From: Cenococcum geophilum
Taxonomy: Eukaryota
Direction of reading: 5' to 3'
Length of the DNA: 64,000 bases
NCBI GenBank assembly: GCA_050273025.1
Contig: CP158635.1
Span: 19,468,001-19,532,000, forward strand
Shown: piece after piece, positions 1 through 29,000 of the stretch
Position numbering within the stretch: the first letter of the stretch is position 1
Layout of the letters: each line of letters starts with the position of its first letter
Notes under the pieces: generated by a model
Databases searched by the model: none
What the model saw: only the letters and a program-made list of their open reading frames with translations
What the model was told of the DNA's origin: nothing
Translations under genes and position numbers: made by a program

Positions 1-960
1 GCTAGGAACCTTGCCTTATATCTCCTACTACTAGTTACCGCTGTATAGCTTGTTATAGACTTAGTAGTTGTCGGCATTATAGTCTCTTTAGTGCATATAC
101 TAGTGCATCTTTAAAGGGTTAATAGCCAATTAGAAAGGTAATTATATTTATAACATCCTAGTAAAGAATATAGTATTTCCTCTACTTAGAGCCTTTAATG
201 TTTAATTCCACCTTATACTCTAATCGGAGCTATTATTTGTCTTATATGCTAAATAGAATAGCGGTAATTAGTTCCTCCTATTAATTTGTAGATTGGAAGC
301 TAAGTAGGCTATAAAGTAGGCTAAGGCGGGTGTCTTTAAGCAGTGCGTTAATATCTCCCTTTATATAGTAAATGCGGTGCAGTTATATTAAAAAGGCGTA
401 ATTAAACTCTAAATAAAAAGGATTATATAGTATACTTTGGCTATTGTTATATTATTATATAGTAATATCTAAAATTGTCTGGTTAACTTACTATATATTA
501 TTATCGGTCTTATATAAAATTGGTTTACCCGCCTTTATATTCTTAGTTACTTTAAATATCTTTACTCTAAGTAATAATAATAATAATAGGACGCTTTTTT
601 AATATGGTATACCGCATAGAGGCACTAGGTGGGCATTCTGCTTATATTCTACCGCTACTGGAGTATACTTATTAGTATCCGTGTTTATACCGTCTAGTTA
701 TAATTGCGCGTTATTTAACTAGTTAGAGTGGTAGAATTAATCGCGAATTATAAGTAGTTGGGCCGCAATAAACGTATAAGTGTTATATCTCTCTTCGCGT
801 GTTTTTTTATAGATATATTAGTAGCTAGGCAGCCGCCTTTTGTAGCACTATAGGTGTTAGTAAAGGCTGCCGTAACTCTTAGGGGTATAAGAACACTATA
901 GACAGCTTCGCTGTATTATTGCTAATTATATATTAAATAATATAGTATTATTTCTAGGCG
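1..960 (-). pseudogene. Plavaka transposase, N-terminal part (RIP-mutated, frameshift near 80)
   Basis: Minus strand reads Y*DVINNITFLIGY*PFKDALVYALKRL/YNADNY*VYNKLYSGN***EI*GKVP. De-RIPed this is ...FLIGHxPFKDALVYAPERLYNADNxRVYNELHSGDWWWETQGKVP, the YAPER...GDWWWETQ hallmark of Plavaka transposases. 5' start uncertain. Confidence 0.8.
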
Positions 961-999
961 TAAAGAGTGCGTATTATAGTACTAACGGTTAATTGCCGG

Positions 1000-1993
1000 T
1001 ATTTAATCTAAGTGGCTTAGCTTTATGGCTGCTAAAAGTATACCTCTTATTTTTTTACTAGAACTAGTTATACTAAAGCGTAAGTATAACTAGCTTAATA
1101 CCGAGTTTAAGGACTTAAAAGTCTAAGGCAACTAAACTAGACGCTAAAGCGTAAGTGTGACTAGCTTAATACCGAGCTTAATACTAAGTTTAAGGACTTA
1201 AAAGAGTTTAAAGTAGCTAAACTGTAAACTAAAGACTTAATAGTACCTAAAAAACCTTTATCCGTCTAAATAATAATATATAGTATTCTTAGGCAATAGC
1301 TATAGGACTATAGCTACGGCGAAGATATTATTTACCACTAATATTATAGAGCCTAATAATATTAGCTATCTAGATCTGTGATTCCGTTGTTTCTATATAA
1401 GCTATAGTAAGAAAAAAGGGAGGATTAAGGGTAGTGCTAGTTGAGTTAAGATAACTAAATGAGTTAGTACTTAAAACTATAATATCTGGTCTTAGGTATA
1501 TAGAGTTCTAACTAATATTTAACTTAAGCTGCCGCCCGGAAGTCTTATATTTGTTATTAGGGTAATACTAGAGGGTTAGGCCGGATAACGGGTATCGGCA
1601 ATAATATAAATAATTTGAAGCCCGCGAAGTAACTAAATAGAAAGCCCGTGTCTTGTAGGCTAACTACTTATCTTTAACGGCTTTTAAAAGTTTATTTCTA
1701 GAATTCCTTTTAATACCTCCGGTTTCCTGTTAAATAGATATGTTAGTATAAGCCTATATACTACTAGGGTGCGGAGAGCTAAAATATAGTTAGAGCTCTT
1801 TGAATAATTTAGCAGAAAAGAATGGGTTATTTGGGTTAGTTTGTAGATTGGCTAGCTTAACCTTAATATCCTACCCCAGCTTGTGAAGATTAGGGCCATC
1901 TCTACCTAGTATACTACCGTTAATCTGTATATTGGCATCTCCCTTATTTGTAGCGGCTGAAGAAGCTTTAGGTGTCTAGTCTTTAGAAGGCAT
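1000..1993 (-). pseudogene. Degenerate ORF of unknown function (or 5' exons of the transposase)
   Basis: ATG at 1993 starts MPSKD*TPKASSAATNKGDANIQ..., a coding-like frame with RIP-type stops; ~72-bp tandem duplication at ~1070-1210. Confidence 0.3.
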
Positions 1994-2550
1994 TATAATG
2001 CGGCTTTTAAGAGAGCCTACTCCGCGCTAGGGCACTAGACGCTATATTATAGGTAGAGCTTATAGTAGTTGTATAAGGTGGGATATATTTCTAGGTAGTG
2101 TGTGTTTAGAGAAATTGAGGCCGAGGCAAGCTTAATGTAGCCGTATTTTTGAAGAGAAATTAAGGCTGAGCTAAGCTTAACGTAGTTATATTTTTAAAGA
2201 TAAAGAGGCTATGGTATTGGTTTAGGCGGCTATAGAAGTTTAAAAGATTAAGTGGACAATGGTAGGAAATAGAAGAAAAAGGCGCATAAATAAGAGTATG
2301 GTGTCATAGGGCTAGAGTAATAATAGCTATATTATGGATAGCTTAATATATAATTCGGACTACGGGACCTATATATAAATAAGTCTAGCAAATATCTTTA
2401 ATATAAGGCGTAGTAGCTATAAGTAGGATCTAGGATACTAGTTTTGGGTTGCTTGTATAGTAGACGTAACAGCTTACCTAAAAAAAAGTTGCTTTGTTAG
2501 TGATATAGCTTAAAAATAGGTTATATTTTGGGTGAAAGGGTATTCTAAAG

Positions 2551-2893
2551 CCTTATCTTGCGCTTATAGGATAAAATACCATATTATATTTCACTTTGTT
2601 TTGTATAATCTTAGACTTTTTATAATGTCTTAGATTATTCCCCTACCTCTCTTTACTATGTACTTTACCTTATCTTGCGCTTATGGGATAAAATACCATA
2701 TTATATTTTACTTTTTTTTGTATAATCTTAGACCTTTTATAATGTCTTAAATTATCCCCCTACCTCTCTCTACTATGCATTTTGCTTTACCTTATACTTG
2801 CGGAATAAAATACTATATTATATTTTACTTTTTTGTATAATCTTAGACATTTTTTAATATCTTAGATTATTTTAAACTTGTTTCCCTACCTCT
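2551..2893. repeat. Three tandem copies of a ~105-122-bp unit
   Basis: Unit starting ccttatcttgcgcttatrggataaaataccatattatattt...gtataatcttagac...ccctacctct recurs at 2551, 2668 and ~2790 (third copy more diverged). Confidence 0.9.
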
Positions 2894-3323
2894 TTAGAGC
2901 TGCTTTACTAACTAGTTATAATATAAAGAATAGAATTATCAGCTCTCTTATTGTTATTTACTTAGTTAGTAGCGCAAATCTTATATCTTATCTCGCTATG
3001 TACCTTTTGTTCCGTTTCTTACTCTAAGTCTTATATTTCGTTCTACTGCCTATATTAAAGCTTACATCTTATCCTACTTCTTATATTAAGACTTGTATTC
3101 CGTTTTATTTCTTATATCGCTCTTAAATTGCTCTTATTAGCATTCGCTATTATCTTAAGTTAATACTATTAGTATACCTTCTTATTATAACTGTTAGGAT
3201 TGTCTTATTATATTATTACTAATTATCTAATATATTATCCGCTCCACTGTCTTTGTAAGTTACTCTATACTATTCTGTATTAAGCTTTTACCTACTTATA
3301 AATATATAGGGTCCCTAACTATA

Positions 3324-6300
3324 ATGGCGGCGCCATATCTAGAATCTAGTTAGTACTTAACTACTACAACTAATAAGAACTTATCGTAAATAAGTAGTCT
3401 AAAGCTGCAGTAAGGACTTATAATTAATGAAAAAATATATAGCAAAATCCTCTAATACTGTGCTAGCGAAATTAACAAAGCGTTTAGTGGTAGGTTGCTA
3501 ATGTCTAGACCTATATAAAATGGAGTTAAGCGTATAGTCTTTAACCTTCTTGATACTAAGTATGGGCACGTGTTTAAGAGATCTAATCTACTATTAGAGT
3601 TTAAAGCTTTTACTATTACCGCTAAAAAATCTATATGGTAATACGTAACGACTAATAGACGTAGAGGCGTAGAGGTTACAATAACTAATACTATTTAAAA
3701 GCGTGGCGCCTTATCTTCTAGAGAGCAGTCTATTAACTTATCTAGATTAAGGGCAACCTCTAAGGCTGCCTAGGTGCTCGGTAATCTGTCTATTAAAGCC
3801 CTATAATAGCTAAATACTATACCTATACTATTCTATAAAATGAGCTTTACTATATATAGTTACCTAGACAAAACGCCATTTACTAGGGCCCCCATTCTAT
3901 ACGGATTTGTATTAAAAACTAAGTATAAGCATCTATTGTCCGATTCTTTAGAGAAAATTAATGTATATTACTATGGATATAATAAGCTGCAGGCCACAAT
4001 AAGTAAAAACTTCTTGGCGGATAAATATAGGGATGGCTAGACTATAGTAGATCTAACCACTAGTATACTAATTCTTAACCATATAAACCTAGCATTTATG
4101 GTGCTTTCTATAAAGAAGGTTAGACTTAATATAATTATAATTGGAGTTAAAGATTCTAATCGGATTGTAAAGCGTAAGAGACTTTATAATTTATAAGATT
4201 ATATAATATTATATAGAGTTGTCTAACGTACGTTTATAGGTATAAGATTTAATGAGGGTAATTCTAAGTCTAACTCTAACCCTAATATTGTATAACTGGT
4301 ACTAACTAAGAGAAGAATAGACATACCTGCCTTGGGTTGAAGTAGTTATAAGCAGTTAACCCTAGAGTCTACGCTACCTATACCTAAGCAGTTAAATTTA
4401 AAGCTTATGTTAACTCTAAAGTCTACGCCACCTATACCTACTAATGTATTATTAGCCGTACGGCCGGCTATAATTAAAACTGCTTATAGCTAAACCCGTA
4501 GTAGTAAAGACCAGCCCCTACTAGATAAATTGGAGCTCTTAAAAGGCGTAAATCTAGATAAAGTGTAAATATTTAAGATAATGCTATAGGATAAAATAAA
4601 AGGATAGTATAATAAATGGCTAAAGTCTAATCGCGAAATGTTTATTAATATATTATTTGAGGATATAAATAATAACCCTAACCTAATTTGTATTGGGGAA
4701 ATTAATCTTAACTATATATAGGAGCGCCACCACTTTAACGCCTTAATTAACCCTATTTTAACTAATAAGGAACCGGAAGATAAGCATAAGGATAAAATTG
4801 AGGAGGTTAATTAGGAAGTTAATCACCTAAAGGACGTATAAGAAGTATATATTAACTTAATATTATAGGTAAAGGCGCTATAGTTCCTCTTGTTTCCGTT
4901 AACTGTTTATAATACTCTTTAAGACGCAACCTTCTACTTATACGGCATAAAAAAGGGTAAAGCTATATAGATATATTAGCTGCTTAGTATTACCTATACT
5001 CTTCTTAATTATGTAACCCTAGGTGGGACCTTTCTTGTGGATATAATGGGTTTAGGTAAAATACTTTAAATGCTTTTAATCTAGTATACCAGCGTATTAA
5101 TAACTAAGATTAACCTTAACTGGCTTAATTAGAAAAATTAAAAAGGTAGAGATAAAAGTCTTTACCTTACCCCTAGTATAGATAAACACCCGCAGCCGCC
5201 TAATGCCTAATGCCTGAGTTAAATAGATGGCATGCTATAGTGCTATTGTGTTAAGGGAAGTATCGCTAGAAAATTTCTTAACCGGCTAGTAGGACTAACT
5301 ATATATATTACTAGATATAATCTACTACCCTAAGCAGTTAAAGACGTTAAATTATGGTTTAAGACCTTAGAACTAAATAATTTTATTTCTAGAGGTAAAC
5401 TATAAGTCTATATGCGCCATACGGCTTTTATTAGGTCTAGTATAAAAAAGTATAATTTTACGGATAAAGATAGGGATATTCTTAAACCTATAAAATATAA
5501 AGGAGAAGGTAAAGTGGTCTGATAGAAAATGGACCTAAGATTAGCTTTATATTTTATAATTACAACCTTATAAACTTAGGCAATAACCTAAACCGCTTAG
5601 GAATAGTATAAAACTATTTTTAATCTCTATAGAGACGGTGGTCCTTATTATATTATTAGTGGGATTTTTACTAATGAGTTCTATATAGATAGGTTAGAGA
5701 TAGGTTATCTAATAAAAATCGCCAAATAAGTGTATAATGATTAAGCAGTATTTCCTCGCTTTTAACGCCTGGGCCAGTTTTATAAGGACGGCAATAGTAA
5801 AATAACCTACTATACCTCTTAACCTTTAGTAGTGTTTACTTCTGGTATACTAACTAGCGAAGGTTTTATGAGTCTAATTCCCGCCTTAGAAATTTTTAGG
5901 GCCCCTAATTAGACGGATTCCCTAAATATAAAATTAATTAATAATTGTAATATTAAAGCGTTAATTAAATATAAAAAGCTAGGAGTAGCTAATCGCTCTT
6001 CTTTTCCAAATAAGGTTATTACGGGCTTTAAAAAATACTTCTCTTTAATTATAAAGGTCTTGATTATGCGCAGGATGGGGGAAGACCGATGGTTTAATAG
6101 GAGGGTAATTAATAAGCTACCACTGGTTGTCTACTAAGACTGCTATATAATGAACGATTTAATATTTAAACCGTATATTAAGAAGCTTTGGTATAGAGTA
6201 TCCCTAAAAGCTTTTGAACAGCTAAATAAAGCTTTTAGACACTAGAAAGCTAAAGGAAGAAAAGGAGAAGAACCTATCTTTAATATAGATTAATTTCTGG

Positions 6301-7121
6301 AGGGAGCCGGTTACTTATTAAAAAATTTTGCTATCTTTCTAGGCCTAACTAAGGTAGGAGATAAGTAGTAGGATGTGTAGTAGAAGGATAAAACAAAAGT
6401 TGGAATAAAGCTAAGGTAGATAGTTAACGAGTTCCGTAGCGAAAAATAGGATAAACCTTTGGATAAGAATCTACTTTAGAAGAATTAGAGCACGATTGCT
6501 AACTCTAGGAAACTAAATGGAATTATAAAATATATTAATAAAGTACTTAAAAGGAATCCTAATAAGAGACTACTATTTAGCAGTTACGAACTAGCGGTAT
6601 ATACGCTATTACGCCTTATAAGTTAGCTATTAAACTAGTGGTAAACTGTTACTAATAATATAATATAGTATTTCTATAAAAGGCTCGGCCAGTCTAAATA
6701 TTTAACTATTTGCTAGATAGAGTCTAGGATATCCCTAAAAGACTAGGAGGATATCTGCAAAGCGTTTTGTATTCTAATAGGCGGTTTTTACTAAAATAAT
6801 ATAGTCTAGTTTCTTATTATTAACTGAAGAGTTAAAGAAAAGGGTCTAAATTTAGTCTCTACGCATAGAGTCTATCTACTTAAACTAGTAATAATGGTAG
6901 ATATAGAGGTGCAAGTGTTTGGCTGAGCTGCTAGATCTAGACAGCTAGCGCTAGTAGTTACTGCGTTAATAATGTATAGTACGGATAAGTGGAACCCAAT
7001 TAATATAGTTATATTAGTGAGGCGTATAATAACTAAAAGGATAATAATTAATAAGTTTTATAAAGTGTTTAAAGCCTAACCTACTTAGTAGGCTAATAAT
7101 AATGTAATAAAAATAGCGTAG
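3324..7121 (+). pseudogene. SNF2/SWI2-family helicase-like ATPase (RIP-inactivated)
   Basis: One frame from ATG 3324: GGTFLVDIMGLGKIL at 5022 (motif I), IFTNEFY at ~5665 (DEFH), TSGIL (SGTP), LIMRR. After a probable intron (~6620-6670): KGLNLVSTHRVYLL...EVQVFG*AARSRQ (motifs V/VI). Confidence 0.85.
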
Positions 7122-8286
7122 CTGGTGCAGTTAGAGTAGTAACCCCCTATAATAAGAGTATGTCTTAGTATAATATATATATATATAGACAATATATAAC
7201 TATTTAATATTTTGTAATATATTATCTTAGTATTAACCACCTTATAACTAACTAAACCTTAAAAAGTTTAAATTTTGTCCGGATTAATATTACTCTAGCT
7301 ACTAACTACCTTAATACCTATTAAGTAATCTAGCCTATAACCCTACTAACTCTCGTTCCTAATATACATTAACAATTCCTATTAAGGTGTATCCTCTTTA
7401 CTAACAGACTATATATATATGCCATCTTTATTATTCTAAAAGCCTAATTAGTATATAAGAGGATTATCCTGTAACTAAAGCTCCCTTTATATCTTAAATT
7501 ATTATAAGAAGTAAGACGGCATTAGAATAAATAAACTAATATTTATAACTACCGCTTTTGTCTGCCGATTGTATAGTTGTAGCGTATATACGTAGTTGTC
7601 TGCTATAAGGGGGAACCGTTAGTGGTAGTTTTTGAGATCTTACTATCCTATGTGAAACTTTTACTACTACCTATAACGTCTTAACGACTACCAGCTCCTA
7701 CCTACACGCTATGCGACGTCTATACGAAATCCCTAACGGCGAAGAAAAGCGTACCCTAATTATTCTATTTAATCTGCCTCCTACCTTTTTTTATTAGTAT
7801 AAGATATTGAATTAACCTATAATATAATACTAACTGGAATAATTGGTAAACCTAGCTTCGCTAAACAAATGTGCTTAATTATAAGGACCGAAACCCTGTT
7901 GCTATTAAGCTTGTTATACTATAAAATGAAAGGGCTATTATTAATATTAGTACGTTTTAAAGGCACTTTATTAGCTAGCGCTAATAGATATAAGTTAATA
8001 GACTACCTACTACTTTATATTTAATAGTTTTAAGAACAATAGGGTAAAATATGCTATTATTTATTGTGCTCTTACTAACTATAATATTTAATTCATTATA
8101 GGCCAGAAATTTAACCTTAAAGATAAGTAAAAGGTAGACTTTTGGGATATGTTAGATATATTATAGACGAAACCTTTATATAACCTACCCGCATTAGAAC
8201 ACCTTAATAGCAGTACTATACTATTGGATTTTGCTATTAGGCATTAGTAACTAAGTAACCTTAAATCTTCCCCTTATTGCCCGGCC

Positions 8287-8520
8287 CTAAGCCTTATTAT
8301 ATTGCTAAGACTTATTATATTATTGAGTTTTATTGCATTGCCGCTGAGCCTTATTATGTTGCCGAGTCTTATTATATTGTTAAGTCTTATTATATTGCTA
8401 AGCCTTATTACGTCGCCGAGCCTTATTATATTATTAAGTCTTATTATATTGCTAAGTCTTATTGCATCGCCATCGAGCCTTATTACGTTATTAAGCCCTA
8501 TTATATTGCCGCTGAGCCTC
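8287..8520 (+). repeat. 18/21-bp tandem array (consensus ~gccgagccttattacatt), probably the repetitive end of a degenerate ORF starting ~7700
   Basis: About 12 units, lengths multiples of 3; explains the overlapping spurious ORFs at 8274-8541. Confidence 0.85.
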
Positions 8521-8594
8521 CTAGCTAGATTAAGCAATTAGACGTTGCGTATTTAACTCCTAGGCGTAGCGGGTTCGATTCCCACTTGTCGCGT
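8520..8594 (+). other. tRNA-like/Pol III promoter-like cassette (degenerate)
   Basis: T-arm/B-box gcgGGTTCGATTCCcac at ~8568-8585 and A-box-like tagctagattaag ~50 bp upstream; no convincing acceptor stem. Confidence 0.4.
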
Positions 8595-9433
8595 ATTAAA
8601 AATATTAAAAATATTAAAAAAGAAGGTCGTTTCTTATTAAATTAGGCGTTAGTAAGGCTTTAAATTAAGCTTATATTTTTATACGTGTCCCGCAACGCCT
8701 AAAGTTATATATTTAACGAAATCTTAGCACTATATATTAAGCATATCGGCTCTTCCATGTTAAGTTTTAATTACGTTAGGCTAGCTCTAAATCATAGCAA
8801 GAGGTAGAATGTACTATACTACTACGCTATAAGGACTTTGGAATGTGATCTTATAAATTTAACTAAATTATAACCCCTTTTTAAACCTTATGATTAAACC
8901 AGATCCTTAGGGAGAGATCCCTATATTAAATCTTAAGGAACGTTTGGTTACGACTTTAGATTAAATTTAAAGGCCGCAGAATATATCTAAGCTGAAGCTT
9001 AAATCTAATTCTAACGCAATCGTTTGGTTAATTTAGCAACTTTCTAATCTAAAAGCTCCTTTAGATTGGCAAGCGCGTTAAATTCGTAAGCTATACCGTA
9101 TATAGAATCTAAATTTATAAATATAGGGTATCTCTATTACTGTAGTGGCTACTATAGTAACGGGGGCGCTATATTTTAGTGAGTAGTTAATTTACTATGT
9201 CTCTGCTACTGCAGTAGCGAGGCACCTTAAGTTTAATACCACGCTAAGTATTATAACTTTCCTGTAGTAACTAAGCAACCCTAAACTAAAGCAATTATAG
9301 AACTTACTATGCCACTACGCCGTAAAGGCCCTTAGTTATAGTCTTATGAATTTAATTAAAATATAAACACCTTCCTAAATCTAACAATTAAATATTTCTA
9401 TATATAATACTATGCCAAGGATCACGATATAGA

Positions 9434-9544
9434 TTGCTTAGACATAGCTTTACTATAATGCAACGGCTCTATACTAATTAATTAATCTATAAGAGATTTG
9501 GGCAGTAAAATTACTGCTAAGAGTTACTATCTAGATCCTGGCCG
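9434..9544 (+). repeat. Dispersed duplicate of 47096-47151 + 47229-47283 (3' flank and last codons of the SnoaL-like gene)
   Basis: Near-identical blocks tagctttactataatgcaacggctctatactaattaattaatcta and aagagattyggg...gagttactrtcyrgatcctggccg; differences are transitions. Confidence 0.95.
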
Positions 9545-9595
9545 ACAAATACCTATAACTATAATCTTAGTAAATGGCAAAAAGTATATAGTAGT

Positions 9596-9995
9596 ACTAA
9601 GACAATAGCAGGACAATATAAGACAATAATAGGACAATATAATATAATGGCAGGACAATAACAGGACAATATAATATAATAGTAGGACAATAATAGGACA
9701 ATATAACACAATAGCAGGACAATGGCAGGACAATGTTAGGATAATATAACACAATAGTAGGGCAATAATAGGATAATATAACATAATAGCAGAACAATGT
9801 AATATAATGGCAGGACAATATGACATAATGGTAGGACAATATAACATAATGGTAGGACAATATAACATAATGGTAGGACAATATAATATAATGGCAGGAT
9901 AATGTAATATAATAGCAGGACAATATAGGACAATATAGGACAATATAATATAATGGCAGGACAATGGTAGGACAATATAAGATAATATAAAAAAA
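9596..9995. repeat. Minisatellite built on core AGGACAAT (10/11/21-bp units)
   Basis: Repeated caggacaatataacataatgg and caggacaatgg variants; source of the spurious Cys/Tyr/Ile-rich ORFs. Confidence 0.92.
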
Positions 9996-10139
9996 TAAAA
10001 TATAAGATATAAAAAGAGGGAGCCCTAACGCTTCCTCTTCTTTCTACTCCTACGGCCCTGGCGCCTAATATAGTGTAATATCGTCTATCCGTATAAGCGA
10101 TAGTATTAAGATGGTTAGAAGTATTAGGAAATTTTATAA

Positions 10140-11290
10140 AGTATATATTACTTTAAGTAATATACCTAAATAACTAGTTTAGCGCATGGTTTGTATAACA
10201 TGTGATAATAACAGGGGGATCTCCTATTGTTATATTGCTAAGTAACACCTTTAAAGCCACGTTTTTCTAGTGCCTGGAGGTCTTTAGATTATTATAAGAC
10301 GCTTTATAAGAACTCATTTTAGTATAGTAGCTTAAGATTTGTTAAGCCCTATAGTAGTTATATTTAACCAGTCTTTAAGAATATGAATATTCTTAAATAA
10401 GGAAGCATCCTTAATAGCTATAATTAAACTAAGATCCGTATAAGGCTTATTTATAACGTATTATAGTGCTTTAATATTCTGTTAAACTTAAATAAGGTAT
10501 TCTAATAACGGGAATCTATTAGTGGTTAGATATCTTCTTATTTAGAAAATATTATATACTTACGGCTCTTTTATTAGCTTTTGTAATGCTAATATAGTGT
10601 AGTAACTAACTTTATAAAATCTAGTTTATTCCTTAACCATCGTCTATAATACGGATAAGTTAATCTTAATATCTTTAGGTCTTAAAGAATAAGTTAACCT
10701 TTAAGGGATTCTGTTCTAATACGGCTAATGGTCTCGCCGCCACTATTACAAGTATATATTTTGTTTAAAAATTATTAGTCTTAGGAGTTAAAGCAACTAG
10801 AGACCTGGTGACTAGTCTTTTTAACTAATCCTAATGGATTATCTTCCCTACTCTCCTAAGTAAGAACGCCACGCAGATTACTAGCCCTTAAGGTAAAAAT
10901 ATTATTGAGCTAATATGGACCTTATAGATATTAGGGGATAACTGCTTTAGAATTATAGCATGCTTACCTATTTATATATACCGACTCTATTACTATATCT
11001 AGATTCTAGTAAACTAAAAAGGGTCTACTCTAATTTGACCTACTACCTCTTTTAACGGTTTAATCGTGTCTTCTTTTAAAAGATTGTATTAAGAGCTTAG
11101 ATACTTCTTCGTTAAGCCATATAGACCTAAGATCTTGTTGACTTGTAGTAGAATATCTCCGTTTTCGCTAATGATATTCTGGCCCTTATTAGGGATATTA
11201 AGTATTTTAGTGGAGGTCGGGACCTCTAATTGTGCTAACTAGGCTCTACTAGTTATAGGCTAACTGGGCGTCTTAAAGTATTGGTAAATA
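10140..11290 (-). pseudogene. Truncated, intron-containing fragment of an Hrr1/SAD-3-like (Upf1/ZNFX1-type SF1) RNAi helicase
   Basis: Minus strand: A*LAQLEVPTSTKIL...YLSS*YNLLKEDTIKPLKEVV...SLVALTP...IVAARPLAVLEQNP...LALQKLIKEP...GLNKS*ATILK*VLIKRLIII*RPPGTRKT/ALKVLLSNITIGDPPVIITCYTNHALN*LFRYI. GT-AG introns at 10921-10967 and 10516-10563. Similarity stops right after motif Ia. Confidence 0.85.
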
Positions 11291-11676
11291 TAGTTATTAG
11301 TACATATTAAGCTGCCTAGAAAGGATTTATATATATAGAACTATAGCACTATAGCCTAGAGGCTGTATGCGTATTATTGTATATAGTATAATATAATAAA
11401 TATATAAAAAATATATAAAAAAAAAGTATTGACGAATCCGGGTGTTAAATTAAGCTTATAGACGGAGACGTAAAAGGGATAGGAGGTTATAAGTCTAGGT
11501 GGTATAGCGGGTGAAGAAGCGTTCGCTAATACGCTTATTTATTTCTTATAAGACATTTAACTAATTATTTTATATAATAACCAAACAATATACCTGTCTA
11601 TATAATTCTATACATTAGTCTTAGCGCGTAATTAAGACGTCTTTCCTGCCGCACCTCCCCTAACGCTTCTAGAATT

Positions 11677-13380
11677 ATGGCACTAATAATAGACCTAAGC
11701 TATAACACTAAAGACACTCTTAAGCGAGATCTAGGGCTTATGAACGAACAATATAATACGATCTACTATAATGTTGAAATCAAAATGTCGACGCGCGGGC
11801 TCCTTAGATAGCTACTACGCTCCCTTATAAGCAAGATATAAATACGGCAAATATTAAACGAAATCTCCAACGAATTCCCATCTATGTTTTTAGGTTTACC
11901 TAAGAACCTACGTACTAAATATGTTAAACAGCTTGCCTAGCGCTATAGCTATAACGCGACGTGTTAAATAAATAAAACGGCTCCTACTAGGCAAATTATA
12001 ATAGGCAACTTAGTACTCCCATACTCCGCCATTGCGTATTATCCACTAGCCGGCATACTAAAGGCAATAAGGCAGGAGGGAATACTAAGGTTATATAGAA
12101 CAATAATAATACTAATTTAGCGGGTAGCTGACGAAGAGCTAATAATTATCCTAACCTAAAAGCTAGCGACTAGCAAGAATAACGCTCTAGATATATACGT
12201 TAATAATCTAAGCTTTAATATATTTATAGATATACTAGGCTAGGATATTAACTTTAACCCTAAAAGTAAAACGCTTTACTACTACGTTGGCGATAAGATA
12301 GCTAGAGGACGAATTTAGCTTATAAATAAAGAGAAATAGCGCAGTGCGGTTAAGGATATATTTCTATAAGAAATAGATAGGTTTTTATTTATAATAAAAT
12401 AAAGAAGAATAAGTAGGTTACTACTTAAAGTTAAGCTAGCATTACTAACTTATATTTATAGTCTGCGCTACTAGCTAAAAATAATATAATTACTTACCCT
12501 CTATTTCCGCACCCTTGCCTTTACTAAATAACTTACACTCTATATATATAAGAATAGGTAGAACTAGTAAATGGGTTAATACTAAGGCGATACTTAACCT
12601 ATAGCTGTCCTAAAAAACCTCTCCTAGTTAAAAAAGAGCCCTTACTCTATGCCTTAACCCGCAATAAAAAAGGCAAAGGCAACTATAACCGTAGTATAGA
12701 TTATGCGCCTTAAAGCCACTGCTTTATCTGGAATGCTTATTAGTTTAATGGATTACTATATATAAAGGTAGACGGCTTAATAGAGCCCCTTAGTATACTA
12801 TTAGGCGAGGGAGTTTTAGAATAATATAATCTAAAATATTCTTATAACTTATCCGGCATTCTTAAAACGCCTAAAGGGATTAGACGATAAAGTTTAAGGT
12901 TTATACCCGTTCTTTTTAGTAAACTTGTTAGGGTAATATATGTTAATACCGTCCCCGGCTCGCTCTTAGTATCTAATACCTAATCCTTATATCTATGCTT
13001 GCGCTTTTCTTACTATTCTGCTGAATTTAATTGCTATTATAATATATATGTAGGGGATAGGTTAGGCTTACTATAGGCTAGCGGGGTTAATAACGCGGAA
13101 AAATAACATTAGATATTTATAGTAGAAATACTAGGTGTTGCATAAGGGTATAAAATATAGCGATATAACTATATAGAAGTGTGATTGCTGTCCTATATAC
13201 CGCCTATGCCTACCCTAGCATTATCTACACTGGCGAGCTATATGGATAAGGTAGATAAGCTTCGCTTTAAGCGCGAAACGGGTATTAAACCTAGTATAGG
13301 TAGACTGGAATAAGGTATAGGATCTAAAAGCCAGCGCCCTAGGTGGGTAAAGTGGTTTAATAAGGTACCTCCCTGTTAAA
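11677..13380 (+). pseudogene. RIP-inactivated gene(s) of unknown function inside the Plavaka element
   Basis: Coding-like frame from ATG 11677 (MALIIDLSYNTKDTLKRDLGLMNEQY...) with only TAA/TAG RIP-type stops, and a probable intron near 12410-12460. Confidence 0.5.
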
Positions 13381-13947
13381 TTTAGACATGAGCCTTATTA
13401 GCCTACTGCTTTTGTTATTAGGATTAACGTTTAACCTTTTATATACGTATACCGTATCTGCTAAGGGATATGCTAATAAAATAAAATAGTTTCGCGTATA
13501 ATAGCAAATAGTATTAGACAATCTTTAACTATATAACAATGTTTTCTTAACTACTAACTTAACGCGAGTTAATAGGTTGCGATCGCGGCTTAACCGCAAC
13601 CGGTTAGAACTAGCAGCTAATTATAATAAATACACCCCTATTTAAGTTATTTGTAAGCACCATAGTAATAATACTCCTACTAATACTGCCATTAGTTTAA
13701 TATATATTATACTAGTATACATTCTTTTAAGTTGTTAATCTATATACGCCCTAGACATTATAAAAACAGCCATAAGGTAACCTATTCTAGCTATAAGCTA
13801 TACCTTCTGCTAACTAGGCAAATATAGGAGTGTTACTATAGTAGGTAAACGTAAAAACGCGTTATTAAACACTTAAACTAGTAGCAAGAACCCTACTTTG
13901 AGTTAATATAGGATAAGAAAATGAGGATAACTAGTATAATTAACCTT

Positions 13948-16560
13948 ATGTCTCTACCTAGCCTACTACTAAGAGTTGCCTATGTTCTAGCTAACGGAAG
14001 AAAGAACGCGCTAATAGAGAACGAGTATGTGGAACTTAGCTAGGACGAGTATATGGAACCCAGCTAGAACAAGCACGTAGAACCCAGCTAGAATGAGTAA
14101 TATTATAACTTTAGTCTAGTTATATCTAGGCGCAGAGAGGAGTAGGTATATAATAGACCCCGTTAACATCGAATATAATATATTAAGCTGGCTAACAATA
14201 TATAGAATATATATGGCCGCCTCCGGCTTAAAAGGGTAATATCTAATAATAAGAATAGCGACTCTAGTCTAGTTATATCTGGGTATAGAGAGGAGTAGGC
14301 ATATAATAGACCCTATTAACGTTATATATAATATATTAAGCTAGCTAACAATATATAGAATGTATATGGCCGCCTCTGGCTAAAAAGGGTAATCTCTAAT
14401 AATAAGGATAGTGACTATAAGTCTATACCTGCTTCTTCTATAAAATAATAGCGACTAAATATTAATAAATCTACTAAATTTATTAATAATCTAGTAGCAG
14501 AACTAGCTTAGTTAAAGACGCGAAGTCCTAATCTTTTGGTTAAGGTAGGTTACACCTTTATATATAACTGGAGTCTAACTACAATATTTAATAGTCTCCT
14601 CTACTATTTAGCACTTGGTGAGCCCTAGTAAATAAAACACTCTCTTTACTATCTAACCGCCCACCGCTATAAAAAGCAGCATCTTTATAATATACCTCCT
14701 GCTCTTAATAATTGCGTATTAGTTTAAAATACTCTTCTATACGCCCAATCCGTACCTTACCGCGTAAATAATTGTATGCTAGTTTAAAATACTCTCCTGT
14801 ATGCCTAATCTAAACCTTATCGCGTAAATAACTAATATTTGGCTTTATATTCTTCTTAGTAAGCCGTGTTCGCCTAAACCCTAATATAGCTTCGTCTATA
14901 AAATAAGTAACCTCCCTCTAATATAGAGTATACTAATCTAGTGTTTAATCTAAAGGGGACCTAGATAGCACTAGGGAAAGTAAGGACGAGTCGGACTATA
15001 ACGATTTTGACCTAACTGCCGCGATATAGGCAAGAGAAGAGTACCTTTGGATATTATAACGGCGATATATAAAAGAAAACCCACCTAAGAGATATAAGCC
15101 CATATTTGCGCTTTATAGGTCCATTTTACTAGTAAGGCTAATAACTAACTCTAGGACTTATGACGGGCATCTTATTAACCCGTGGTTTAACCGCTTTCTA
15201 GGCCTTATTAAGGATATAATAAAAAAGGTATAGTTAGAAGCTATTTTAAAGTAGCTAAAAGCAGTATAAAAAAAAGCTAATTATATTCCTGACCCGGTGT
15301 CCGCTTATAAGGTATCTATATACTAGAAATATTGTATTAAATTGTCTACTAATAATCTTAATATTATATATAGCTATTTAATGTAATAGGGAACTTTAGG
15401 AACCACGTAATTATAAAGGCTTATATAGTTATAAGGGAGGTATATAGGCTAGGGTTTAATAATATGCCCGAACTAATTATGGAACTACTAACTAATTATA
15501 ATTTTATTACGCTAGATTATATAAAGGTATTTTGCCTATGCTATTTAGTAAAATGCTAATAAGAGTTAATAGCTAAGTAATAACCGCTTCCGTTCTAACG
15601 CGATAGTTGCTAGCATAGCTAGTATATTTTACGGTAGAGGAAGAAACGGCCTTGCCTAATTACCCTGCTCTTATAATATGTTTAAAAAGCTTACTAGTAA
15701 TACTATTGCTTTTATTTTAATAGTAATATATTATGCAATTAGGGAGTATAGAACTAGGTCTAAGGGAATAGATAACTTTTATGGTACTGTTATTAGCAGT
15801 TAGTATATATCCGGTGTTTTACTACCTATTATTATTCTCTAACCCGTTATAGAAGCCTATGCTAACCTCTTAGGCAGCTAGAACTAGATGTTTAGAAAAC
15901 GGCAATCTAAAATCTAGCTACGGCTTTAGCCCGTAGTTATTAAATATACTATAGGCCTAATGCCGGATTAATTAACTATAGAAATTATTAAGGACCCGTA
16001 TAAAGATGACCTTAACGACCTTATAGCGGATTTAAGCGATAATATAAGAGAGAGGTTCCTTATAAGCCTTAGCAATAACAAAACTAACGCGATTATTAAC
16101 TTAGGCTATTTATTAGTAAGCCGGGCTATACTATCTAATCTACTAAGTCTGTCTTAAAGGGAGAGCTCTAGAGTAGGCTAGACTAGTTTACTAAGTCTGT
16201 CCTAAATAGAGAGCTCTAGAGTAGGCTAAACTAGTCCGTTAAGTCCGTCTTAAAGGGAGAGCCCTAGAGTAAGCTAGAAAATCTAGGGCCCTACTACTAC
16301 TATAATATTTGCTAATTTAACTTTTAGAACTAGCTAAGTTCGTTAGATTTAGCAGAATATATATCCTCTGCCCTAGTATACCACTTTATCCTAAATATAG
16401 GAACCAGTAAGCCTAGGCCGGAAAGGTTTAAATCTAATAAGTTATTTATATAATTTAAGTAGTACTATAGCCTTATAGAGGACAGCTATGGCTAGTATAG
16501 TAATAGAAAAGTAATATTAACTTTAATTAAGAATAAGGAGCAGTATATAAAGTTTGTAAT
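13948..16560 (+). pseudogene. DUF6532-like domain protein with repeat-rich termini (RIP-inactivated)
   Basis: 15580-15920: RFRSNAIVASIASIFYGRGRNGLA...TIAFILIVIYYAIREYRTR...NFYG...AYANLL resembles the DUF6532 pattern (IAL..TAI..AL.EW.TG...F...Y...L). In-frame 153-, 60- and 42-bp tandem repeats and several GT-AG introns. Confidence 0.5.
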
Positions 16561-16989
16561 ATATACTCTGGACTCTAGTATAGAGAAGCCAATAGAGTTT
16601 TTGGTAGGAGATTAGGTATAGGACTTTCCATACTCTTCTATAGGATAACTGCGGCTTCTTTATTATATATACTAGCTCTTAATCTACCTTTCTTTTAGCC
16701 TATATCTGCTACTCTTAGTAGCTACTTTTTGGCTATATATATATGCTATACTAGCAAAGCTAAATACTTATAGTATATTATTGTCGCAGGGAGAGCAGGA
16801 AAGGTCTTATGCTTTTAAAATATATTATAAAACAGTTGGGATATTATATTAAATTATCTAAAACAATATAATAGATTGTATAAAGAAGTGTATATAATTT
16901 GCCTTGCTAGCCTTATAAATAGCTTTAAAGTAGCCTTTGTTTATTATCTAAAATATACTGTTAGTATAAAAGAGGTGGATGGCTCCAAA

Positions 16990-17156
16990 TACAATTGTGG
17001 TTGTAGGTTGCGTGCAGGTTGCGCGTAGGTTGCGCGCAGGCTGCGCGCAGGCTGCGTGTCAAAAAAACACGACATAGGCTAGTCGGTCGAGTTGCTAAAT
17101 GCCCTCAACTGCGCGCCAATTGCGTCAACCACCAACCATTGAGGCCATTGGTAGGG
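16990..17156 (-). repeat. Terminal/subterminal region of the Plavaka element
   Basis: Five 11-bp repeats gYaggYtgcgY at 17003-17057, inverted related motifs (caactgcgcg, caaccac), end ...ccattggtaggg = CCCTA on minus. Confidence 0.7.
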
Positions 17157-17620
17157 TACCATATTTTGCCGATATAGAGGTAAAAAGGAAGAGCTAAATT
17201 AAGAAGCTTTTAAGTAGGAAGCCTCTCTATAAGCTTTTAGTAAATATAATAAAGAGATCGCGCGATAGTAAGAAGTTTTAAAAACCTTAAAGGTTGCTAA
17301 GAATAATATATGGTTATAGACTCTGTTAAATACTACTATGTAAAGACGGCCCGTATTGGCAGAAGTACGTAAATTGGCTTAATACTAAAGAATAAGTATC
17401 TATATATAATATACACCAATATTTTAATATATTTATAGCTTTAGTTAAGACCTTTGGTAATATAGTAGAATAATTAACCGCCTAGGAATGTAGCTTATTA
17501 ATTAATATATACGGGCCATAATTTATAAAACGTAAGTAATAATGTAAGGGATAGGATATACTTAGGTCTATTCTATTATAGGAGGGAAGGTCTCTCTCCA
17601 GACAAGAAGTCACGGTGCCG
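17157..17620 (+). mobile_element. 3' remnant of a piggyBac-like transposon (apparent target of the Plavaka insertion)
   Basis: Frame RKPLYKLLVN...R..RIIYGYRLC*ILLCKDGPYWQKY de-RIPs to RTxYGCxLCxIPLCKDGPCWxEH, the piggyBac C-terminal Cys-rich motif; ends ...cacggtgccg followed by TTAA (17621-17624). Confidence 0.55.
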
Positions 17621-18099
17621 TTAATCTGTCGGTCGGTCGTAGTTAGTTAGTAGAAATTAGTAGGGAAGTAGTTAGTAAGAAGAGAAGAAAAGAGTATATT
17701 ATCTCTTAAAACTGTCAGCCTGTTAAGCCTATTTAAGTTATTAGAAACCCTAGGGCTACGGACCAATCTATATATCTATAGAAGGCCTATATACTCCCTA
17801 GACTATACCTAATCTAAATATTAAATCTAGTAGGCTAATTTACCCTACTATATACCTCCCCTACCTAAGTTATTGTCCCCTAACGACTCCTAAAACTTTA
17901 AAACTCCCTATCTTTAAAATAAAGGTATAGTAGGTAACTATATATACTCCTTGCCCTTACTATAAACCCAAGATAGTAAACAAGGAGACTCTGTTTTAGT
18001 TAAATAAGACCGCTCGCGTCTACCTAGTAGAGTAGTATAAGAGGTATTAGACTAACGGCTCTTAGATAATATAGCTCTTTTATATTCTTCTATTTACTT

Positions 18100-19270
18100 G
18101 GTTTTATCCTATAGTTCTTTAGGTAACTCTATATAACTTTATCCTTCTATAATAATAGGGAGTACTCTACTTAGATCTACTATAATAGTTAAAGGATTAA
18201 TTCTATTGTTAACGCAGTAGAAATACGAGCGGCTATTAAAGCGCTTTATTTTGGCTATATATATAAGCTAAAACGCATTCTTATAGTTTTCGACAGCCCT
18301 AAGACGGTAAAAATATATCTACTTACTAACTTCGTTCCTATTGCCATTAAGAAAAAGGTTATAATTTTAAATTATCGTTAAAGAGTCCTATTATCGTCTA
18401 CCTAAAAGGGCGTTAGATAAGGCGCTGGTAGCTATAAGCTTAACTACAGTAGGGAAGCGGTATAAGATTGCGCTGTAAAGATTAGTATATCCGGATAGTA
18501 TATGGGGTAGTGCTTTTAAGTATTAATAAGTATCTACCAGCTCTACCTAAGTCCCTCCATTTATAACCTTAAGGTTATTATAATCGTCCTAAATACTAAT
18601 AAACTATAGCAGTATTATTTGCTAAGTCCTAGTTAAAGGTCCTTTCGCTCTATAAGGAAGGTAAGGTATAGTTATATATATATCTCCTTTCTTATATAGC
18701 TAAGCTACCTAATTAGTTGCATGTTTTTCTACGTCTTAGTTAGATATCTTATAAATAAATCCATTACCCTTAGTTAATCCTCGCGCCTTAAGATCCTTCT
18801 ACTATAACTCTAGGTGGTAATATATACTAGGTAGAATAATTATATAATTATCCTTAGTTTTATTATCTAGAGAAATGCTTCCTTAGATTATATTAGCACT
18901 GCATCCGCTCTCTAAAAGAGAGGAAATATTAACATTAATATAGTAGAAAGCTGTAGAGTCTCCCTTAATAGCGAATTTTATATAATAAGGGTAGAAGATA
19001 AGTTGTTACTAGCTGTTAGGCCTAAGAGCGTAATAGAGACGGTAATACTAAGGATTCTGCCTTATTAGCTACTAGTAGAGACTATAAACTATCGTTCTTA
19101 ACTAGCTGTAATTTAGCCGCCTATTAATTAGACGCTAATAATAGCGGTATATACGTATTTCCTTATTAATTATTACTAAGATGCTAAAATCCTACTACTA
19201 TTTAAACACGTTTAAAACCATAGATCCTTTTACTCCTATATATCTTGGTTATTTAGTAGCAGCATCTAAT
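18100..19270 (-). pseudogene. PhyH-like 2OG-Fe(II) dioxygenase-fold protein (RIP-inactivated)
   Basis: Single frame de-RIPs to YGWLRTMVYSLxQQLMRQDP...RLISYPYY...FRHIDVNI...MIQGSISLDDE...ILPGMHHHL...KKGDVxITIPHLPHGA, giving the HxD, QGxxxL, PGxH and GD...H pattern. The His/Asp ligands are inferred from RIP-reverted codons. Confidence 0.65.
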
Positions 19271-20224
19271 TAAGCAAAGTCTCTTAGTTATGTCCAAGGG
19301 GGTCTTCTCCTTGAAGCTCTACACGAAGCCCTGCACGAAGATCTACAGCTTTGTTTACGACCAGCTTCCACCCCCCTCTGGCAAAAATTTATTTCGCTAC
19401 AGCTCAATCGCCACCAACTGTATATAGTAATTGTAGCAAACGCCTATGGCTGTACGCAAGGGCTATTTTGGTTGTCTGGGAGAACGGGCACGACTCCTCC
19501 CTTTCAACGACTTGTTGAAGTTTCTTTCCTCCCCCTTTTTGCCTACGCCTACGCCTACGCCTACGTTATAGACTTACAACAGCTAATAAAACGCGATCCT
19601 TCGCCTTCCATCGTCTTCAATATCCTTTATAGCGTGCATAGCTACATTACCTTTGTTAGTTGTCCATTGAACGTAGAGGCCACGTTAAAAGTGGGTCAAC
19701 CAAGGCGTCTTCAAGGCCAACATTATCCAATCCAGCTTCCTCGTTCTTATTTTTCTCAATTCCACTTGCTTCGCTATTTCGAATGTCACTTGGCGTATGC
19801 AGAAAGCCTGTTCAACACGCCTATGCAGTCATGGCTTGGTTCCCGTCTCTAATACCTAGTTCACGGTTCACAAAAGATTGGTTGGGGTTTTGTTTATGGT
19901 TTTAGGTGATCTGTCAAAAGAGCGTTATCCCTACAGCACGAACTCTCCCCCATCCTGGCGTATTTTGCAACCCCATCGAACCATCCATCGAGCCACTCTT
20001 TCTCCACCCCCCTCTTCCTCCACCATGGCACGCCGAAGCCGCCACGCTTCCACGGATCGCCTAGGTAATAACCATGCTAGAACTCATTAACACCACGATT
20101 TCGAAGTTTCTCTGCATTTAATGCCACGGGCCAAAACTTACAAGCTTCCAATAGCGCAGCCGGAAATTGGAAGGTAACAGTTGGTGTCCTGCTGCTTGAC
20201 GCAGGCATGGCAGTAAGTCTTCCC

Positions 20225-25130: not shown

Positions 25131-26027
25131 TAGTGTAGTACTAAGTTGGAGCGATATATAAAGACTAAGTAAGGGTTAAGTTATATACTAAAAAGATACT
25201 ATAAGTATGGTAAAAAGCTATAAAGCCTAAAAAGTAAAAAGTTATTAAAATATATAGTATAGGATTATAAGATAGAATTAGAATTAGGAACAAGTCTAAG
25301 GTACTTTTTAATCTATAGGCTTACTAAAGAAGAGTTAAGAGTACTTAAAAGGTTTATCTAAGAAAACTTATAAAAGGGATACATCCAACCATTATAGTTA
25401 TTAGTAGAATATTTAGTACTATTCGTACCAAAGAAAAAGAAAAAAATAGTCTATATATTAAATATAAATAGTTAAATAGTATTACTAAAAGCGTTAGGTA
25501 TTCTTTACGCTCAATTAGCAATGCGTAAATCTTTACGAAGATAGATTTAAGATAGGCATACCATTAGATTAGAATTAAGGAAGGTAATAAATAGAAGGCA
25601 GCCTTTAGGTTAAAGGAAGAACTATATAAGCTATTAGTTATATAATTAGAGCTTATAAATGTACCAGCGATATTATAAAAGCGAATTAATAGTATATTAA
25701 AAGAATACCTTAATAAGTTTGTTATAGTATATTTTAATATTATTATCATCTATTTAGTAACTAAGGAAGAGCACAGGGAATACGTTAAATAGGTCTTAAA
25801 GAGACTATAAGTAGAATAGATACTAGTGGAAATCGAGAAATACGAGTTCTTTATAAGGAAGACCAATTTTATTAGATTTATTATTAAACTAGGATATATT
25901 AGTATAGACTTAAAGAAAGTTAAAGATATAGTGGGCTAGTAAAAACTAGAGAATATTACGCAGTTAGAATTATTTTTAGGGTTTTACAACTCCTATAGAA
26001 GGTTTATTATATAGTAGTTAAAGAATA

Positions 26028-29000
26028 GGCACTTACTCTAGACTATATCCCTATCCAGATACAGCTAGACCTAGATACTAAAGCGCAACTAAATAGAAAA
26101 AGATACGCAATAAGGAAGCTTAAGATAGATAGTTTCCTTAATGTAGTTAAACAACAACTTTAAGACCTAGAAGAAATCCACCTAATACCAAATAAGCGAG
26201 GCTTATTAGCTACCCCTGAGGAAATCAACCGAAGACTAGAAAGGATCCAGGCAGCAATTAAAAATAGGCTGGAAGAGTACTGCCCGATCTTAAAACCAGG
26301 CCCCTATGCGCGACACGTATAGTCCATATAATGCGCAGTTCTGGTTGCTAGCTAATAATAAGCAAGAAGGAAATATATAAGCAGCTATAACCCTAAAGAC
26401 GAGAGACGATATAAAGATATAAGAAACCAGCTAAAGAATACCCTAAAAAAAGAAGTAAGGAATAACTAGAGACGGTTTATAAACGAGTATACTTTTAACC
26501 CGAGCCTCCCCTATAATAAGGGCCTTTAGGCTATAGCAAAATAGGTAAAGAAAAAGGCAAGGCGCCTAGCAGAAGACCTATACCTACTACCCCTACGAAG
26601 AGTAGGAGAATTATAGGCCATAAACGACAATAATAAGAAGGCAAAGATCCTTATAAAAAGGTTCTTCCCCTAACCGGCTCTAGTAGACCTTAGTAATATT
26701 ACGGGCGAAACACCGGTAACTCGCCTGCGGGTTAACAGCGACATGACAACAGAGGAAATGGCTAGAACTATTAGCCGCCTTTTAAACAATATAGCACTAG
26801 GACCAGATAGGATTCTAAATAAGGCCCTAAAAACCTATAGGCCACTTATAGCACCTTGGCTTGCAGATATAGCCAGAGCATGCTTTGCTATAGGCTACTA
26901 CCCGCGACTTAGAAGATCTATAACGACGGTTGTCTTATAAAAAGAAGGTAAAGTAGATTACTTAATCCTAGGAAGCTACCGCCCTATTGCCTTAAAAAAC
27001 ACCCTTAGCAAGATCTTAAAAAGGGTAATAGCGGAACGTATAGCAGATATAGTAAAGGAACACGCCCTACTACTATAAAGCTAAATAGGGGTAAGAAAGA
27101 ACCGCTTAACACTATTAGCACTTACGCTACTCGCTGCTACCATTAAATCTACATGGGCGATACAAAAGGACTTTATAGTATTAATGCTTAGCCTAAACAT
27201 TAGTGGTGCCTATGACAATGTACCCTATAAGCGTCTCCTATATATCCTTAGGGCAAAGGGCTTCCTAAAATAGATTATATAATTTGTCTAAGGGTTTATA
27301 AGCTAGAAAGAAACATTATTGGTCTTTAGCAGATACCAGAGCCCCCCTATTACAGTTATAATAGGAATACTATAAGGATTACCCCTCTCGCCTATACTCT
27401 TCCTTTTCTCTATAAGTAACCTACTTAACTCCTTTAAGAAAGGGGCAACCTAGGGGATAGGCTTCGTTAATAATATAAACCTAATTATATACGGGCCAAC
27501 AGCCGTAAAGAATTGCAGAATACTAAAGAAAGCTTATAATACTTATATAGAATAGGCAAAATATTATAGAGTCTAATTCTCACTAGAGAAATACCAGCTA
27601 ATCTATTTTATAAGAAAACGCAACTAATTTGCAGATCTTTAGTATATAATTCGCATCTAAGGCTTTAGGGGTTAACTAGTTTAGGGCCTAAGGGTATTAG
27701 AAGTATAGGTAAATAGTAAGCTCTAGTAAAGCGTATATGCGGCGCAAGCAGCCCGTAAAGGCTAAGTATAGTTTATTACTTTATCTAGGATTATTAATTC
27801 TATATAGGGTCTATACTTCTAGAGGTTACGCCTACTATATATAGCAGTTGTCCGGCCAACTATAACATATAGATCTAGTATTTGGGCCATTGGAGAAACT
27901 AAGAAGGGCCCCCCTAAATTACTCCTTAAACTACTTTAAAAGGTCTAAACAGCCTGCCTTTAAAGTATTATAGGCGGGTATAAGCGAACGGCCACAGCAC
28001 TGCTTAAGAAGAAATCCAATATTCCCCCCCTATAGTTATATATTAAAGTCGCTATAATATAAAGGACATAAAATAAACGCAACTCTAATGTTATAAAGTA
28101 TATTAAGATACGCCTAAGTAAACTATAGAGGGACCTTAGGGTGCCCTATAGGAGAATAAACTAACAACCCTAAAGTAGGGAAGAGATATTAGAGAAATAG
28201 GTAAAGAAAGTAGAAGAAGAATAGTGCCGCTTTAGGGCCTAGGCCTATATAGAGAAGGAAGAGAAATGTATAAGAGGTTAATAAAGATAATAGTAAGACA
28301 GAGAAAGAAGCTAAAGTAGAATATATAAGAACGCTGGGAAACTATCTACCGCAATATAATACTGGTTAGACTAACGCTGGAGAGGCGAATGGGAGTTAAA
28401 GATATAGAGGCTAACTTAGGTAAGACGAACCTAAGCTATAGCATAGTTAATGCTATAGGGGGTAAATATTTAAGGGCTCTGAGAAGGCCTAATAAAGGCA
28501 GAAAATATAATAGCAATACTTTTAAGAATAGGAATAATAGGACTAAAAGATTGGCTTTACTAGGTAGGTGTCCTAGTAGGTAGCCTAAGATGCGAATGTG
28601 GCTAGCTAAGACAGACACTAAAATACGTAATACTGCTATGCCCCCTACGCACTAATTAAGAAATAATGCTCTTAGTAGCTGGCATAGAGAACTATAATAC
28701 ACTGCTCTTAATATAAAAAGGCCTTAAGGCGGTTACCTAGTGGCTTATTAGTTAAAATATACTAAATTAGTTCCGAGTTATAAGGGAAATGGTAATAAAA
28801 GGTAAGGGGGCGAGTAGTAGGTGCCCCCTAGTAACTCTATAGTAGTAGAGTAATAGTTTGTAATACTAGCGCGTTTATAGGCTTGTTACGGCAGCAGTAG
28901 TTCCTAAGGAGGTTAAATAGTAAGGTAGTAGAGCACCATAGGCAACTCGTAGGCGCTAAGTAGGCGAGTCCTAAAAGGCGGGGAGATGGATCACGGGGTT

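Follow-up and report, generated by a model that had tools for sequence, protein, structure and literature searches.

What occupies the left part of this stretch of Cenococcum geophilum DNA (64,000 nucleotides of contig CP158635.1, positions 19,468,001 to 19,532,000 of the forward strand, hereafter the window), and where does it end? We consider it very probable that positions 1-17174 are the right-hand 17.2 kb of one inactivated transposon, a long, high-copy element of autonomous type that is PlavakaB-like and belongs to the CACTA/EnSpm-related clade known as CMCT. The whole element is probably at least 20 kb long, a full length that we infer by extending it beyond the left edge of the window. 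Positions 1-19200 are rich in adenine and thymine (AT), with a guanine plus cytosine (GC) content of 0.29-0.36, and are followed by gene islands of normal GC content at 19.2-23 kb and at 43-51 kb. The indices of repeat-induced point mutation (RIP) are strong over the same 19.2 kb (TpA/ApT 1.3-1.7, composite index 0.5-1.25), the composite index being negative in the GC-normal parts of the window. Stop codons are dense in all six frames of the AT-rich block, and positions 1-20000 hold six open reading frames (ORFs) of at least 80 amino acids, four of them inside minisatellites and two beyond 19.4 kb. C-to-T and G-to-A changes riddle every long copy of the element seen, and the differences between the window and its copies on contigs of public runs are almost all transitions.

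The assignment to Plavaka comes from the left edge of the window, where the minus strand carries at 2..1000 the 5' part of a transposase gene, about the N-terminal 330 codons, interrupted by many stops. Translated from the minus strand, and with X for each stop, nt 2-1000 gave 37 matches at E ≤ 0.001 in a phmmer comparison with 1.84 billion representative proteins, three of them at E ≤ 1e-10, the best distant match having an E value of 7.8e-12. Query residues 180-310 (nt 463-71) align at 24-36% identity to proteins of 150-460 amino acids. The Plavaka family PF18759 is present in all 16 of those 37 matches that were scanned, and P0008, also among the matches, is labelled Plavaka transposase by its source. 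By tblastn, matches fall at nt 80-421 and 494-697; taken together, homology to Plavaka transposases covers nt 71-463, and nt 494-697 resemble close short fragments. BLASTP to P0006 (E 3e-18) aligns the stretch before the Pfam domain and the first ~75 positions of the domain, and therefore the gene should start near nt 700-1000 and run leftwards out of the window. The transposase motif reported in a first-pass annotation, made from the letters alone, is thus upheld, as is its view that most of the gene lies beyond the left edge.

The right terminus had been placed at a CCCTA ending at 17156. The 21-mer given for this terminus follows a set of 11-bp repeats and has a single occurrence in the window, where chance would predict none; its exact sequence is found in at least 121 metagenome loci. 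Outward of the CCCTA, the next 18 bases are identical in all of the 121 loci listed, barring transitions and one variable base, and the flanks diverge only before 5'-CATCGG. The true end therefore lies at 17174 and not at 17156. On the minus strand the tip of the window copy reads 5'-TATCGGCAAAATAT, starting with TATCGG where the family consensus is CATCGG, which amounts to one C-to-T change. Among the same listed loci, the bases just outside the tip are T at -2 in 84 and A at -1 in 86, with mostly C or T at -3; TA stands directly outside in 66 of 121, compared with a background of 0.16. In 47 of them the contig ends less than 160 bp from the tip. This conserved end of the family, which we call end A, spans 17052..17174 on the minus strand, its 14-bp inverted-repeat tip being 17161-17174. 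The flank TAG at 17175..17177 (TA or CTA on the other strand) is likely one copy of the target duplication, its partner lying outside the window.

The terminal ~170 bp (17005-17174) differ in composition from the rest, with a GC content of 0.47-0.57 and many CpA/TpG intact, compared with 0.17-0.40 in the interior. When the window was compared with five long arms (L003, L009, L070, L077 and L078), these terminal ~170 bp were 90-98% alike (95-98% over the first 150 bp) and the interior 90-93%; the choice of loci by the exact 21-mer biases this terminal conservation, without explaining the GC-rich end of the window copy itself. In L001 an insert of ~5.5 kb interrupts end A at position ~96, L012 and L048 leave end A at the same place and carry the shared insert sequence, and L073 leaves it at ~45 and shares part of the L001 insert. 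Either a copy bearing the insert multiplied or the insert prefers this site.

What does the other end look like? The arms that reach at least 300 bp into the element in the listed loci number 59, of which 11 are of the window type, 41 of a second type and 7 of neither. The second type belongs to complete short elements of 1.3-2.2 kb, in which ~280 bp resembling the window end are followed by satellite arrays and then by an end ...CCTGCGAATATTTTCCCGATG, here called end B. Six complete short elements terminate in ...AATATTTTCCCGATG, that is, in ...CCGATG. Ends A and B have only ~14 bp in common, in inverted order (CATCGGSAAAATAT), and for this reason none of the metagenome loci contains a second end A in inverted orientation; the upstream search for the 21-mer that the first-pass annotation proposed would fail. 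By extension, the left end of the long element would be of the end-B type. The expected target duplication of 2-3 bp was borne out in the six complete short units. It is 2 bp and exact in four of them (TA, GA, TA and TT), and 3 bp, with transitions allowed, in three (TTA/CTA, AAG/GAG and CTT/TTT), one unit fitting both. A duplication of 2 or 3 bp thus fits 6/6 units, compared with 5/30 in a control of crossed pairs. The pair L027 and L028, 27 kb apart on one contig, represents two short elements that are independent of each other. L064, an end-B arm that stands alone, diverges from the short elements after ~370 bp; Pfam on the six frames of L064:1-1685 gave no match, and no gene was recognised there.

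Is the 17 kb between the transposase remnant and end A one unit? The alternative is a patchwork of unrelated RIP-mutated repeats, in which a Plavaka fragment and an unrelated terminus happen to lie side by side. Five independent loci (L003, L009, L070, L077 and L078) speak against it, as they run colinear with window 7250-17174 for 5.4-10 kb each, inward from the same terminus, at 86-91% identity; a further locus, L038, carries part of the element. Depth tells the same. Contigs of four public runs (X1, X5, X8 and X21) were matched to window 1-20000 at 80% likeness, and in X1 the summed contig depth was ~11,500-18,000 in 24/26 bins up to 17342, compared with ~92 for a single-copy contig at 19512-20000; summed depth is not copy number, and we read it as about a hundred copy equivalents. 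The ratios were similar in X5 and X8 and lower in X21. In three runs, 24 of the 26 bins agree within ~1.5-fold, every bin is covered by other copies, and the flanks to the right of the element vary 7-fold. Moreover, ends of the type published for the transposase family are found at the side opposite to the transposase remnant. The patchwork does account for two depth peaks, at 10673-12006 (x3) and 16676-17342 (x8), which show parts occurring alone, and for the nested insertions that are common in the loci. Altogether we regard it as very unlikely, and the first-pass view of one giant element of more than 17 kb holds.

The x3 peak, seen in X1, X5 and X8, covers the 5' part of a helicase gene fragment and the start of an orphan ORF, both described below, and this piece therefore occurs outside the long element too. 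One case of nesting can be read in detail: in L059 (4756-5689) the end-B terminus of another family member abuts the long arm at the place of window 16591, and this junction is an insertion nested within the family. The flanks of insertions in nine loci (L007, L015, L016, L022, L023, L035, L068, L074 and L077) hold ordinary fungal genes (two HET, NB-ARC/TPR, patatin, ATG13, tyrosinase, two SET, a ribonuclease and ribosomal L5), and therefore the family also adjoins GC-normal gene space.

A number of observations weigh against the interpretation as one long PlavakaB-like element. Two of them would suit the patchwork: no second copy among the loci examined spans window 5000-7250, and therefore the join at that place rests on the window and on even depth; and L049, which tracks window 486-4997, stops at both of these positions and carries an inversion of window 1169-1726. 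Nor does any locus examined show a copy of the long form with both ends. The catalytic residues of the transposase lie outside the window, and Pfam scans in all frames returned neither a Plavaka nor a KDZ nor a piggyBac domain, even at E ≤ 10, so that the Plavaka profile proposed in the first-pass annotation does not recognise the remnant directly, because only ~75 positions of the domain are inside the window. The de-RIPed consensus likewise proposed was built from six copies; after correction of transitions its GC content is 0.45 and its longest ORF has 206 codons. In L027 the duplication fits 2 bp only, and in two other short elements 3 bp only; its length is therefore mixed. Finally, the tip of the window family has G as its fifth base, in place of the A of published PlavakaB. 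The loci add no more of the gene: tblastn of 36 Plavaka-type matches to all loci found only the window and L049, and among the 29 ORFs of at least 200 amino acids in the loci, the 26 scanned with Pfam (three overlapping ones were omitted) comprised host genes and a Tc5-type fragment and no Plavaka.

What else does the element carry? The first-pass annotation counted at least four further genes killed by RIP, and four coding remnants are indeed present; of these, the helicase proved to be a fragment, and the SNF2-like assignment depends on motifs only. The first remnant, on the plus strand at 3003..7100, is an ORF whose frame 3 has the lowest stop density and contains the strings DIMGLGK (5040), LLFSSY (6570), GLNL (6843) and QVFG*AARSRQ (6912), which resemble SNF2 motifs I, IV, V and VI and follow each other in this order. 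Such a combination appeared in 0/300 shuffles, with regular expressions that were composed after the sequence had been seen. Neither Pfam, including searches with shorter pieces, nor phmmer against PDB gave a match for this ORF, and no homologue was found among proteins of 751-2391 amino acids, shorter split forms not having been searched. From its stop density and motif-like strings, the ORF is probably SNF2-like.

The second remnant lies on the minus strand at 9994..11301 and is of the Hrr1/ZNFX1 type of SF1 helicases. Pfam ZNFX1 (PF25396) matches at ~10678-10923 with an E value of 1.4e-10 and 41.5 bits, the cut-off being 27. A profile made from three copies retrieved 13 proteins of 1035-1360 amino acids, all with AAA_11, AAA_12 and ZNFX1; the closest, P0041, has the source label Glonium stellatum (E 1.3e-76, 45% identity), and another is labelled helicase required for RNAi-mediated heterochromatin assembly (RNAi, RNA interference). 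By tblastn, the element carries only residues ~34-439 of a helicase relative of 1162 amino acids (window 11301 to 9994), the N-terminal 38%. In three other copies the Walker A motif can still be read. The fragment stops at a minisatellite in 5/5 copies that cover the place, and the core past motif Ia is absent. The remnant is thus a truncated gene fragment and not a whole member of the helicase family.

The third remnant, an orphan ORF of 294 codons on the plus strand at 11677..12561, is 77% identical to P0001, an intact hypothetical protein of 294 amino acids (E 4e-157), and has only three matches among 5.8 billion proteins. P0001 matches no Pfam family; a structure comparison gave no match of at least 0.9, and weak PB1-like rows with TM scores of 0.26-0.36 serve as leads only. 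It is encoded on five public contigs, the longest of 21 kb, and therefore an unmutated copy of at least the orphan gene exists somewhere. The 309-codon stretch around the orphan ORF (11632-12558) has 14 stops in the window and 8-13 in the other five copies, and individual stops are common to between one and six of the six copies, a distribution compatible with RIP having acted on the copies largely independently. The fourth remnant, on the plus strand at 15450..15950, is DUF6532-like (PF20149). All six copies match, with a best E value of 9.8e-10, the window scoring 31.1 bits with a cut-off of 24; the match, at nt 15537-15807, takes in only positions 101-184 of a profile of 194.

Are these genes of the element, or pieces of host genes that it picked up? 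By transduplication, as known from CACTA and Mutator elements that carry gene fragments, they may be captured host-gene pieces that did nothing for the element even in its unmutated state, an explanation that we entertain tentatively, as possible and still short of likely. The helicase is the part that suits it best, given that its core is missing in 5/5 covering copies, that no more than residues ~34-439 of 1162 were kept, and that its relatives are ordinary-looking genes, most of them on long contigs of up to 2.4 Mb. In this sense, it also counts that ~110 bp of the element (9437-9544) recur within the window at 47096-47283, in intergenic DNA of normal GC content that lies behind an ORF of 979 codons. 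The orphan ORF points the other way, since an intact counterpart on five contigs and so few relatives make it look element-specific, and so does the SNF2-like frame, where the motif-like strings follow in order over ~1360 codons, as in a whole gene. The recurrent sequence itself, which matches in two blocks (96% and 87%) and has 77 extra bases mid-way at the second place, could be either a captured fragment or a short mobile sequence.

Large mobile DNA with genes in Pezizomycotina raises the question of Starships, which are low-copy carriers moved by a DUF3435 tyrosine recombinase. A carrier of this or another tyrosine-recombinase type, with the Plavaka piece as a mere passenger, would agree with the size of the element, with several genes on both strands and with a Pezizomycotina host (HET and NB-ARC/TPR genes stand beside insertions). 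On the other side, Pfam gave no match to DUF3435 or another recombinase in the six frames of window 1-19500. The transposase relatives of the window family are of DDE type, and the family has inverted tips, duplications of 2-3 bp, short derivatives with the same tips and about a hundred copy equivalents. A Starship-type carrier is therefore hardly credible here, and the separation from Starships drawn in the first-pass annotation stands. That annotation had also called the transposase a piggyBac, whose 5' part it hoped to find upstream; nothing supports this. The piggyBac elements have a DDE_Tnp_1_7 transposase, TTAA duplications and CCC..GGG tips. Here, there is no Pfam match to piggyBac, the CCCTA lies 18 bp inside the element, and the duplications are of 2-3 bp and not TTAA.

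The PlavakaB-like identity can be weighed with three published systems. Plavaka, EnSpm, Mirage, Chapaev and Transib form one clade (CMCT), with 5'-CA..TG-3' ends and duplications of 2-5 bp, and PlavakaB of Agaricomycotina has termini 5'-CATCA..TGATG-3' and target duplications of 2 or 3 bp (PMC12730594). The window family shares with PlavakaB the transposase family (PF18759 relatives), the tips CATC..GATG and the 2-3 bp duplications. It differs in a length of at least 17.2 kb and in its other extra genes, no TET/JBP gene being seen in the window. The host also differs, being an ascomycete (among the helicase relatives with a named source, the closest comes from a Dothideomycete), and all long copies seen carry RIP mutations. 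In the red alga Bostrychia moritziana, the published giant Plavaka families measure 17.4-19.1 kb and contain three accessory genes as well as internal repeat arrays (bioRxiv 10.1101/2025.02.11.637652). They resemble the window family in their Plavaka transposase, accessory genes, tandem arrays, very high copy number and mostly degenerate state. Their cargo is PAG1-3 (DNA methylase/SET, ParB-like/2OG oxygenase), in contrast to the helicase fragment, SNF2-like ORF, DUF6532 remnant and orphan ORF of the window; their host belongs to a different kingdom, and it is the window family that decays by RIP. In an ascomycete, the Chinese white truffle, the Plavaka elements duplicate 2 bp and their tips show the motif 5'-CATAC-3' (PMC12581995). 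The ascomycete host, short duplications and tips starting with CAT are as in the window family, and the accessible text of that report mentions neither giant size nor extra genes. Giant Plavaka elements and Plavaka elements in an ascomycete are thus both already published, and the window element is a new family of a type already known. In the parts of the literature consulted, no paper was found that reports a helicase or SNF2 gene within a Plavaka element.

Under the interpretation as a PlavakaB-like element, its movement can be outlined as follows. A DDE transposase, encoded on the minus strand close to the left end, would recognise as putative binding sites the inverted tips of 14 bp, 5'-CATCGGSAAAATAT, and probably the subterminal arrays too. 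It would move the element by cut-and-paste, preferably into YTA-like sites, with duplication of 2 or 3 bp. The same ends also moved the more numerous non-autonomous short derivatives, in which end A, satellite arrays and end B follow each other. The long element carries, in addition to its transposase, the probable SNF2-like ORF, the truncated Hrr1/ZNFX1-type helicase gene, the orphan ORF and the DUF6532 gene, with any function of these being presumptive. More speculatively, and in our opinion improbably, these four may be, instead of chance captures, an old accessory module of a giant PlavakaB-like lineage across filamentous ascomycetes, whose live copies counter silencing by RNAi or chromatin, the helicase having been truncated later in this family.

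These findings show that, in an ascomycete capable of RIP, a size of at least 17 kb and about a hundred copies are within the reach of a Plavaka-group DDE transposon as well, and not of retrotransposons or Starships only; such a number of copies would occupy megabases of AT-rich blocks. With the true ends, the second end, the duplication and the short derivatives at hand, the family can be annotated even in genomes that look nearly empty to gene callers and to Pfam. Provided that intact relatives have the extra genes in full length, these may serve accessory functions of the transposon, foremost the helicase, of a type that one source names for RNAi-directed heterochromatin.

The first-pass annotation had noted several repeat arrays, and Tandem Repeats Finder found eight tandem arrays in the element. 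The spacer at 1073..2870, between the diverging transposase and SNF2-like genes, contains arrays at 1073-1234, 2108-2204 (45 bp x2.2) and 2551-2870 (117 bp x2.8). Further to the right, the same program reports an 18/57-bp array at 8287..8509. The minisatellite at which the helicase fragment ends, with units of 21/42 bp, occupies 9598..9990 and is present in other copies too. Arrays of 24 bp x3.4 and 153 bp x2.1 lie at 14018..14425. The subterminal region has a 48-bp x3 array at 16135..16278 and 11-bp x4.7 repeats, GGTTGCGCGCA-like, at 17005..17056. In 7100-8250, 8540-9590 and 12600-15400, nothing recognisable was found by Pfam in six frames or among the consensus ORFs; Pfam on the consensus-ORF regions 12713-13168 and 14999-15373, tried in several copies, gave no match. 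A scan for tRNA genes and Rfam over 1-19500 gave no match, a tRNA-like string near 8560-8600 being no gene. A Pfam match to LbR_Ice_bind at 9.6-9.9 kb was rejected as an artefact of the minisatellite.

The window holds other repeats as well. A RIP-mutated unit of 4.66 kb at 38337-42998 has inverted repeats of 60 bp that are 87% alike, with tips unlike those of the Plavaka family, and a relative of its left flank is found in L042 at ~1030-1680. Another repeat family is represented by three copies, 90-92% alike, at 26021-29119, 53496-55816 and 59165-62263.

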